From the NCBI RefSeq assembly GCF_000027125.1, contig NC_017626.1: a stretch of 64,000 nucleotides of DNA; one strand, written 5' to 3'. Positions 40,338 through 40,619 of the stretch are shown one piece after another. The notes under the pieces were generated by a model. The model was not told where the DNA came from, did not search any database, and worked only from the letters and a program-made list of their open reading frames with translations. Each line of letters opens with the position of its first letter. Within the stretch, counting starts at the first letter, position 1. The DNA comes from Escherichia coli 042. GTDB taxonomy: Bacteria > Pseudomonadota > Gammaproteobacteria > Enterobacterales > Enterobacteriaceae. The position numbers and the translations under genes are program-made.

Positions 40338-40619
40338 TCACATCCAGCTACGGAGTTGATGCTCAACAGCAACCGCGTGTTCATCGAATAATGACGATAT
40401 TTGCGAATCATTAATGATGCGCACATTTACAAAATATCCGTCCTCCTTAACACATGCCGGCTCGCCATCTTCAGTAAGTTCTCCGGTTTCTTTGTACACA
40501 TTACCTATCACGTCAATAAGAATATCATCCTGCATCGACTCGTCATCATAATAGCCAATGCTCTCCATAAAGGCCGAAAAGTCGGCCCTGTCTGCAAATT
40601 TGAGTGTTAAATCTTTCAT
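40338..40619 (-). CDS. small acidic hypothetical protein between the tail fiber and the S74-domain gene
   Basis: 93-aa ORF, no recognisable family; tightly packed between neighbours on the same strand. Confidence 0.45.
   Translation of the reverse strand: MKDLTLKFADRADFSAFMESIGYYDDESMQDDILIDVIGNVYKETGELTEDGEPACVKEDGYFVNVRIINDSQISSLFDEHAVAVEHQLRSWM

Follow-up and report, generated by a model that had tools for sequence, protein, structure and literature searches.

The O-antigen or surface glycan that is open to a phage is set by its side and lateral tail fibres, the parts most frequently re-engineered for use in phage therapy and in DNA-delivery particles. In lambda, Mu and P2, the gene directly downstream of the side-tail-fibre gene encodes an assembly protein (PF02413, Caudo_TAP; Tfa in lambda), which is expected to act on the C-terminal end of the fibre and which moves together with the fibre tip as one exchangeable unit. 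The long-tail-fibre genes of T4 include those for small proteins that join half-fibres (the hinge proteins gp35/gp36) or aid trimer folding (the chaperones gp38/gp57A). The S74 domain (PF13884) deals with the C-terminal nucleation of fibre trimers as a covalently attached, self-cleaving part of the fibre. In the T5-like phage DT57C (LtfA/LtfB) and in phiEco32 (gp14/gp15), the fibre is built from two proteins, the distal one attaching to the proximal one. The closest described relative of the locus studied here is the lateral fibre locus Gp22-Gp23-Gp24 of phage IrisVonRoten (Bas32), which comprises a proximal fibre with a 'galectin-like' C-terminal domain (Gp22), a 92-aa protein (Gp23) and a distal T-shaped fibre (Gp24). 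Gp24 was proposed to attach to Gp22, with each of the two modelled separately, and Gp23 was neither modelled nor discussed (BASEL 2025; PMC11990801). The proximal fibre is named Gp22 in the figure legend and S7 table of that paper and once Gp23 in its main text; in the IrisVonRoten genome (L177), bas32_0023 is the 92-aa homologue of the small protein described below and not the proximal fibre.

The window, a stretch of 64,000 nucleotides of the Escherichia coli 042 chromosome (NC_017626.1), carries direct homologues of these three genes in the same order. Unless indicated otherwise, the prophage genes of the window described below lie on its minus strand. The tail end of a lambdoid prophage (J, lom, stf) points toward the chromosomal genes on the left-hand side, namely hprSR, hiuH, msrPQ and zinT-like ORFs. 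The first-pass annotation had placed a 93-aa acidic ORF, wedged between a tail fibre and an S74-domain gene, at 40338..40619, and its coordinates, position and acidity (pI 4.11) were all confirmed. The gene runs from an ATG to a TGA codon and encodes a protein of 10.6 kDa with 21 acidic (D+E) and 7 basic (K+R) residues, in whose sequence no signal peptide or transmembrane segment was found. Its start codon (40619-40617) overlaps the TGA of the upstream 801-aa fibre gene (40618-40616) within an ATGA element (40616..40619), by which, judging from the sequence, translation of the small protein is coupled to that of the fibre. The start codon also has its own Shine-Dalgarno-like run (GGGGGAGAG) 6 nt upstream, and 9 nt separate the stop codon from the ATG of the 234-aa S74 protein. 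A terminator scan revealed no minus-strand terminator between stf and the gene for a 95-aa protein beyond the S74 gene, pointing to a single operon, and no promoter or terminator of its own was found for the small gene. The 93-aa sequence exactly matched CBG34957.1/D3GXM3 ('Prophage protein', E. coli 042) and occurred on 151 contigs. The gene was intact in all the 174 collected loci (87-117 aa), and its median dN/dS was 0.24 (Nei-Gojobori; 636 pairs of 41 distinct 282-nt alleles), with 99.8% of the pairs below 1. The intact copies, the low dN/dS, 227 homologues in a large protein database and 181 phage records rule out a chance ORF; the small ORF is a real conserved gene under purifying selection.

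The upstream gene (40616..43021) encodes an Stf-like proximal side tail fibre of 801 aa with a PF08400 N-terminus (E=5e-67). The protein consists of a lambda-type N-terminal attachment domain, a shaft of Ala/Ser/Lys-rich repeats and a C-terminal module spanning residues 365-801, referred to here as StfC. Residues 5-97 matched PDB entry 9e7m ('Tail fiber protein') and residues 437-637 matched NF048003; the Pfam search identified no S74 intramolecular chaperone domain in Stf. The AlphaFold2 (AF2) model of residues 365-801 was confident over most of its length, and it matched ConA-like lectin folds (laminin LG, neurexin LNS, sialic-acid-binding CBM40, pentraxin and the botulinum Hc N-domain) as well as a fibre protein of Pseudomonas phages Pa193 and E217. 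According to the model, StfC is formed by tandem ConA/LamG-like lectin domains, in agreement with the 'galectin-like domain' reported for IrisVonRoten Gp22. A comparison of 34 non-redundant fibres revealed a mosaic of conservation, in which residues 335-440 and 760-801 were conserved and residues 440-760 were hypervariable. Identity to the Stf of the window was mostly 72-88% in the 400-440 block, 12-68% over residues 440-760 and 31-78% over the last 40 residues. The divergence of residues 440-760 was seen even between E. coli prophages whose flanking parts were more than 80% identical, with identity falling to 17-68%. Read from these alignments, such a sharp mosaic is the signature of receptor-driven diversification or cassette exchange.

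The conservation of the small protein did not follow the variable part of the fibre. It was approximately 90% identical in prophages whose fibres were only approximately 30% identical over residues 440-760; thus, the small protein is not tailored to the surface presumed to bind the receptor and would not read it. The identity of the small protein tracked that of the conserved last 40 residues of the fibre, which constitute a core LamG motif and would be conserved anyway, and this association may reflect mere physical linkage rather than contact. Mirror-tree or co-variation signals between the small protein and these 40 residues were rejected as contact evidence, since overlapping genes are co-inherited.

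The gene downstream of the small gene (39624..40328) encodes a second, distal or stub fibre of 234 aa, which carries the conserved peptide MATSTVIPDDIKTLK at its N-terminus, a coiled coil and, at the C-terminus, an S74 intramolecular-chaperone domain (PF13884, E=4.6e-6). The protein matched the C-terminal end of the phrog_3299 and phrog_454 fibres, and its residues 109-224 matched the C-terminus of the T5-type LTF (PDB 8hqz_d). Second fibres were present in approximately 103 loci, with bodies of 166, 231-241, 346 or 557-586 aa (e.g., L003, L088, L023 and L177), and, whatever the body, all of them began with the peptide M-x-T-x-T-x-IP-x-DI-x-x-LK. The shortest ones, including the minimal 234-aa stub of the window, contained little beyond the coiled coil and the S74 domain, whereas the longest ones were of the T-shaped dual-RBD type represented by IrisVonRoten Gp24. 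The N-terminal peptide was seen only in the context of StfC and the small gene. It was absent when the distal module was placed in-line or behind a 205-aa docking domain. DT57C, whose distal modules (like those of phiEco32) are homologous to the T5-like second fibres, differs from the present locus in lacking both the small gene and the lectin module; LtfB docks via its own 205-aa N-terminal domain, and in LtfA, as in the fibre of Salmonella phage SP3, the distal module is fused in-line, with neither StfC nor the small gene. These in-line fibres indicate that the N-terminal peptide, the lectin module and the small gene come as one package, and the MATSTVIPDDIKTLKGDVSK peptide is a candidate ligand of StfC, of the small protein or only of their complex.

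The operon ends, in lambdoid contexts, with a gene encoding a predicted 95-aa membrane protein (39326..39613; phrog_1443, PHROG 1443, E=8e-58), which has three predicted hydrophobic segments and is annotated as 'putative membrane protein' in phage 21. It probably belongs to the fibre cassette, possibly as an exclusion protein or moron. Upstream of stf lies lom (43080-43679), bracketed by two strong terminator-like hairpins at 43032-43053, after lom, and 43709-43728 (both on the minus strand), after J, which gives lom the appearance of an insert in the late operon with termination of its own. Just beyond the final prophage gene, a tRNA-like 3' fragment was observed on the plus strand (38915-38966), with an Rfam match below the gathering score and a match to a tmRNA/tRNA end. 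ARAGORN found no whole tRNA in the window, and the fragment is probably the remnant of an att site at the prophage end. In related prophages, truncated remnants of a 'tail fiber assembly protein' (44-101 aa) were observed a few kb downstream of the cassette (L001, 8383-8517; L086, 6500-6805). The position of these Tfa remnants suggests that the cassette of StfC, small gene and second fibre took the place of the former C-terminal part of stf and of the greater part of tfa.

The 93-aa protein was searched against family, defence and structure libraries. The statement of the first-pass annotation that no family could be recognised held for Pfam and NCBIfam, which gave no match at E<=1, but not for the PHROG collection, in which family 1361 ('unknown function') matched the protein over its full length (E=7.3e-45, residues 1-93 on positions 1-92 of the 92-position profile). 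A weaker match was obtained to the sister family phrog_18574, and the T5-like, rV5-like and Aeromonas homologues also fell into one of these two families. Relatives are labelled 'hypothetical' in the databases, where the family is catalogued as PHROG 1361 and VOG7707. An exhaustive HMMER scan of 1.8 billion representatives returned only 44 clusters at 50% identity, all of them linked to fibres; no Rosetta-stone fusion was found among these clusters and none exceeded 150 aa, so the family is narrow and has no fusion forms. An impression from BLAST that the C-terminal third of the rV5-like homologue had been replaced, in keeping with its different partner downstream, was dropped, as the profile aligns over the full length. 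PADLOC gave no match to a known defence protein, and the best hit of the PDB profile search was at chance level (Tetrahymena telomerase p19, E=0.21). The AF2 monomer of the protein (pLDDT 81) had a predicted alpha/beta fold without an informative structural neighbour; the weak fold neighbours included the CdiI immunity protein and the MecA adaptor, and Foldseek against BFVD returned uncharacterised phage proteins only.

The ORF had also been noted as shorter than lambda Tfa and unlike it, and this was borne out by the lengths (93 versus 194 aa), the absence of a Tfa profile match and an hhalign probability of 0.06% between lambda Tfa and the alignment of the small-protein family. The two proteins also differ in their predicted folds. 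The homology and structure-prediction searches called for by the first-pass annotation thus yielded neither a Tfa family match nor an informative fold neighbour. PF13884 (Peptidase_S74) did not match the 93-aa protein, which, unlike the covalently attached S74 domain of the neighbouring gene product, is a separate and unrelated polypeptide. In none of the libraries searched did it show homology to the T4 gp38/gp57A chaperones or to a known fibre adaptor, hinge or docking domain (T4 gp35/gp36-like; LtfB/phiEco32 gp15). By these sequence comparisons, the small protein is unrelated to Tfa, gp38, gp57A and S74 domains and probably represents a new family of a familiar kind. The literature on DT57C genetics and cryo-EM, the BASEL collection, the Eligo lambda-Stf work and AKFV33 proteomics assigned no function to the small protein. 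In the AKFV33 study, the sole proteomic one located, the StfC-type fibre ORF137 was identified as a virion protein (four large gel bands were analysed), and the homologue ORF136 was unmentioned.

The genomic context of the small gene was highly uniform. The gene directly followed a long fibre ORF in 174 of 174 loci, and in 159 of them the fibre stop codon overlapped its start (4 nt in 100 loci and 1 nt in 59). StfC was common to all the 34 non-redundant upstream fibres; their N-terminal parts differed and were specific to each phage backbone, and only the C-terminal 437 residues were shared. The pair of fibre and small gene was carried by lambda-like prophages and phages, including the classical phage 21, by T1-like Drexlerviridae, 9g-like phages, the T5-like phages EC100, SelmaRatti, IrisVonRoten and AKFV33, rV5-like myoviruses and one Aeromonas myophage. 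The fibre of the latter was only 28% identical, and its small protein was still recognisable. The SelmaRatti group and the Aeromonas phage had seemed to possess StfC without the small gene; however, the profile detected divergent copies (E=7e-18 and 2e-15, respectively). The small gene was never found away from StfC in the phage records or in the 174 loci. The fibre-tip cassette matched 4926 of 5426 complete E. coli genomes and more than 200 phage records. The gene located downstream of the small gene was variable: a second fibre started 9-12 nt downstream in approximately 103 loci, a 95-98-aa membrane protein without a second fibre was found in approximately 51 lambdoid loci, a Dit-like baseplate gene followed in rV5-like phages, and an unrelated small ORF in the Aeromonas phage. 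The small gene remained intact without a second fibre in phage 21, in ev243, in more than 36 rV5-like genomes and in the Aeromonas phage. Its dN/dS was 0.41 in such loci (17 alleles) versus 0.16-0.24 in the presence of a second fibre.

The small protein is constantly linked to the StfC fibre module, is under purifying selection and shows no kinship to known chaperone families. The explanation that we favour, with moderate confidence and from genomic context, assigns it to a lectin-tipped fibre module as a dedicated accessory protein, acting as an assembly factor or as a stoichiometric subunit of the tip or joint. Under such a scheme, the trimeric fibre would end in tandem ConA/LamG-like lectin domains and the small protein would serve this tip module, with translational coupling allowing it to be made in step with the fibre. 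It would act on the conserved, non-receptor-binding parts of the C-terminal module. Two modes of action are conceivable, and the data do not separate them. The protein may be an assembly or maturation factor that leaves the virion, a functional analogue of Tfa and gp38 unrelated to them in sequence and fold, or it may be a small subunit that is kept on the finished tip. Where a second fibre is encoded downstream, as is the S74 protein here, the small protein may additionally help to form the joint for its N-terminal peptide. Physical binding to the fibre, like a chaperone or joint role, is what we infer from the arrangement of the genes. The accessory reading is favoured by the strict synteny, the movement of the pair between unrelated phage backbones, the retention of the gene without a second fibre, the absence of both StfC and the small gene from the in-line fibres, the constancy of the small protein beside a variable fibre region, the lack of an S74 chaperone in Stf itself and the shared operon. 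The small protein shares with Tfa its place directly downstream of the side-tail-fibre gene, but its sequence varies independently of the receptor-binding part of the fibre.

To model contacts, sequences from 24 diverse loci were paired in a fusion alignment, each row running from StfC (residues 365-801) through the small protein to residues 1-60 of the second fibre, with a GS linker at both junctions. In this monomeric construct, assessed by pLDDT only (the real fibres being trimers), StfC folded well, the small-protein block reached pLDDT 53-84 compared with 55-91 when predicted alone, and the N-terminal peptide of the second fibre reached 41-58. Hence, there was no gain of confidence for either the small protein or the docking peptide in that construct, which lends a contact no positive support. 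A point against the accessory reading comes from IrisVonRoten, for which AlphaFold-Multimer predicted a confident homotrimer of Gp22 residues 339-796 without the small protein (pLDDT 95.4, iptm+ptm 0.94; PMC11990801, S7 table). As this trimer was modelled without Gp23, its predicted fold does not depend on the small protein, a result that concerns the prediction and leaves folding in the cell unaddressed.

A narrower proposal is that the small protein acts as an adaptor, staying on the end of the proximal fibre and providing the socket for the 15-20-residue N-terminal peptide of the interchangeable distal fibre, much like T4 gp35/gp36 at the knee or the docking domains of branched fibres. Scored separately, and overlapping with the broad accessory reading, it appears possible but rather unlikely. 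The gene sits exactly between the proximal and distal fibre genes in the approximately 103 loci with a second fibre, and every distal fibre of these loci (166-586 aa) carries the conserved peptide, which was found in no other context. StfC and the small protein are the sole components common to all host backbones, suggesting that the distal fibre docks on one or both of them, and the same distal module is elsewhere either in-line (DT57C LtfA, SP3) or behind the docking domain of LtfB. Further points in favour are the lower dN/dS in the presence of a distal fibre and the BASEL annotation of the homologues bas32_0023 and bas34_0022 as 'tail fiber protein'. However, the gene is intact and under purifying selection in the phages without a distal fibre listed above, and its persistence there means that a distal-fibre socket cannot be its sole role. 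Moreover, conservation is higher in the docking peptide than in the small protein and is similar to that of Stf residues 365-440 (72-88%), suggesting that the socket is the fibre itself, and the AF2 fusion gave no confident contact. The most specific version, a plug-and-socket joint in which three copies of the small protein on the proximal-fibre end capture the N-terminal peptide of the distal fibre, must be regarded as doubtful. If true, distal fibres would be swappable among lambda-, T1-, T5- and 9g-like phages with the proximal fibre unchanged.

Morons are classically found in the fibre-distal regions of lambdoid prophages, and the first-pass annotation had proposed that the ORF might encode either a novel fibre chaperone or cargo. 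The former half of this proposal is retained as the accessory reading, whereas the latter, in which an anti-defence, exclusion or regulatory protein would hitch-hike at a recombination-prone site between fibre modules, we regard as improbable. The neighbouring 95-aa membrane protein and lom are moron-type genes, and the weak similarity of the model to CdiI and MecA would fit a cargo function. Yet the small gene occupies the same overlapping position in virulent phages of four families and is never apart from StfC, which makes a cargo role unlikely; the missing promoter and terminator, the lack of a PADLOC match, signal peptide or transmembrane segment, and the narrow, entirely fibre-linked family (44 clusters) argue against it as well. 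About equally improbable is that the small protein masks or inhibits the lectin domains inside the producing cell and is freed on assembly or lysis. Such blocking would keep newly made fibres, whose tip is a pair of carbohydrate-binding-type domains, off glycan precursors in the cytoplasm or at the inner membrane. It would suit a small, very acidic protein that is co-translated approximately 1:1 with the fibre and has immunity-protein-like weak fold matches, but variation in the small protein is not coupled to that of the hypervariable residues 440-760, where glycans are presumably bound, and we know of no precedent for the masking of lectin tips in tail fibres.

The preferred reading, that of a dedicated accessory protein of the lectin-tipped fibre module, has consequences for how such tips are handled. 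If the 93-aa gene is needed for the cassette to work or to be extended, tip transplants must carry the gene along, and the small protein would also define a new fibre-accessory family unrelated to Tfa, gp38, gp57A and S74. If the small gene has no role, the design of such cassettes becomes simpler. The published two-part fibre model of IrisVonRoten leaves out exactly Gp23, the homologue of the 93-aa protein (PMC11990801). The significance of the finding is modest, and it would matter mainly for the transplanting of fibre tips and for completing the two-part model of the lateral fibre.
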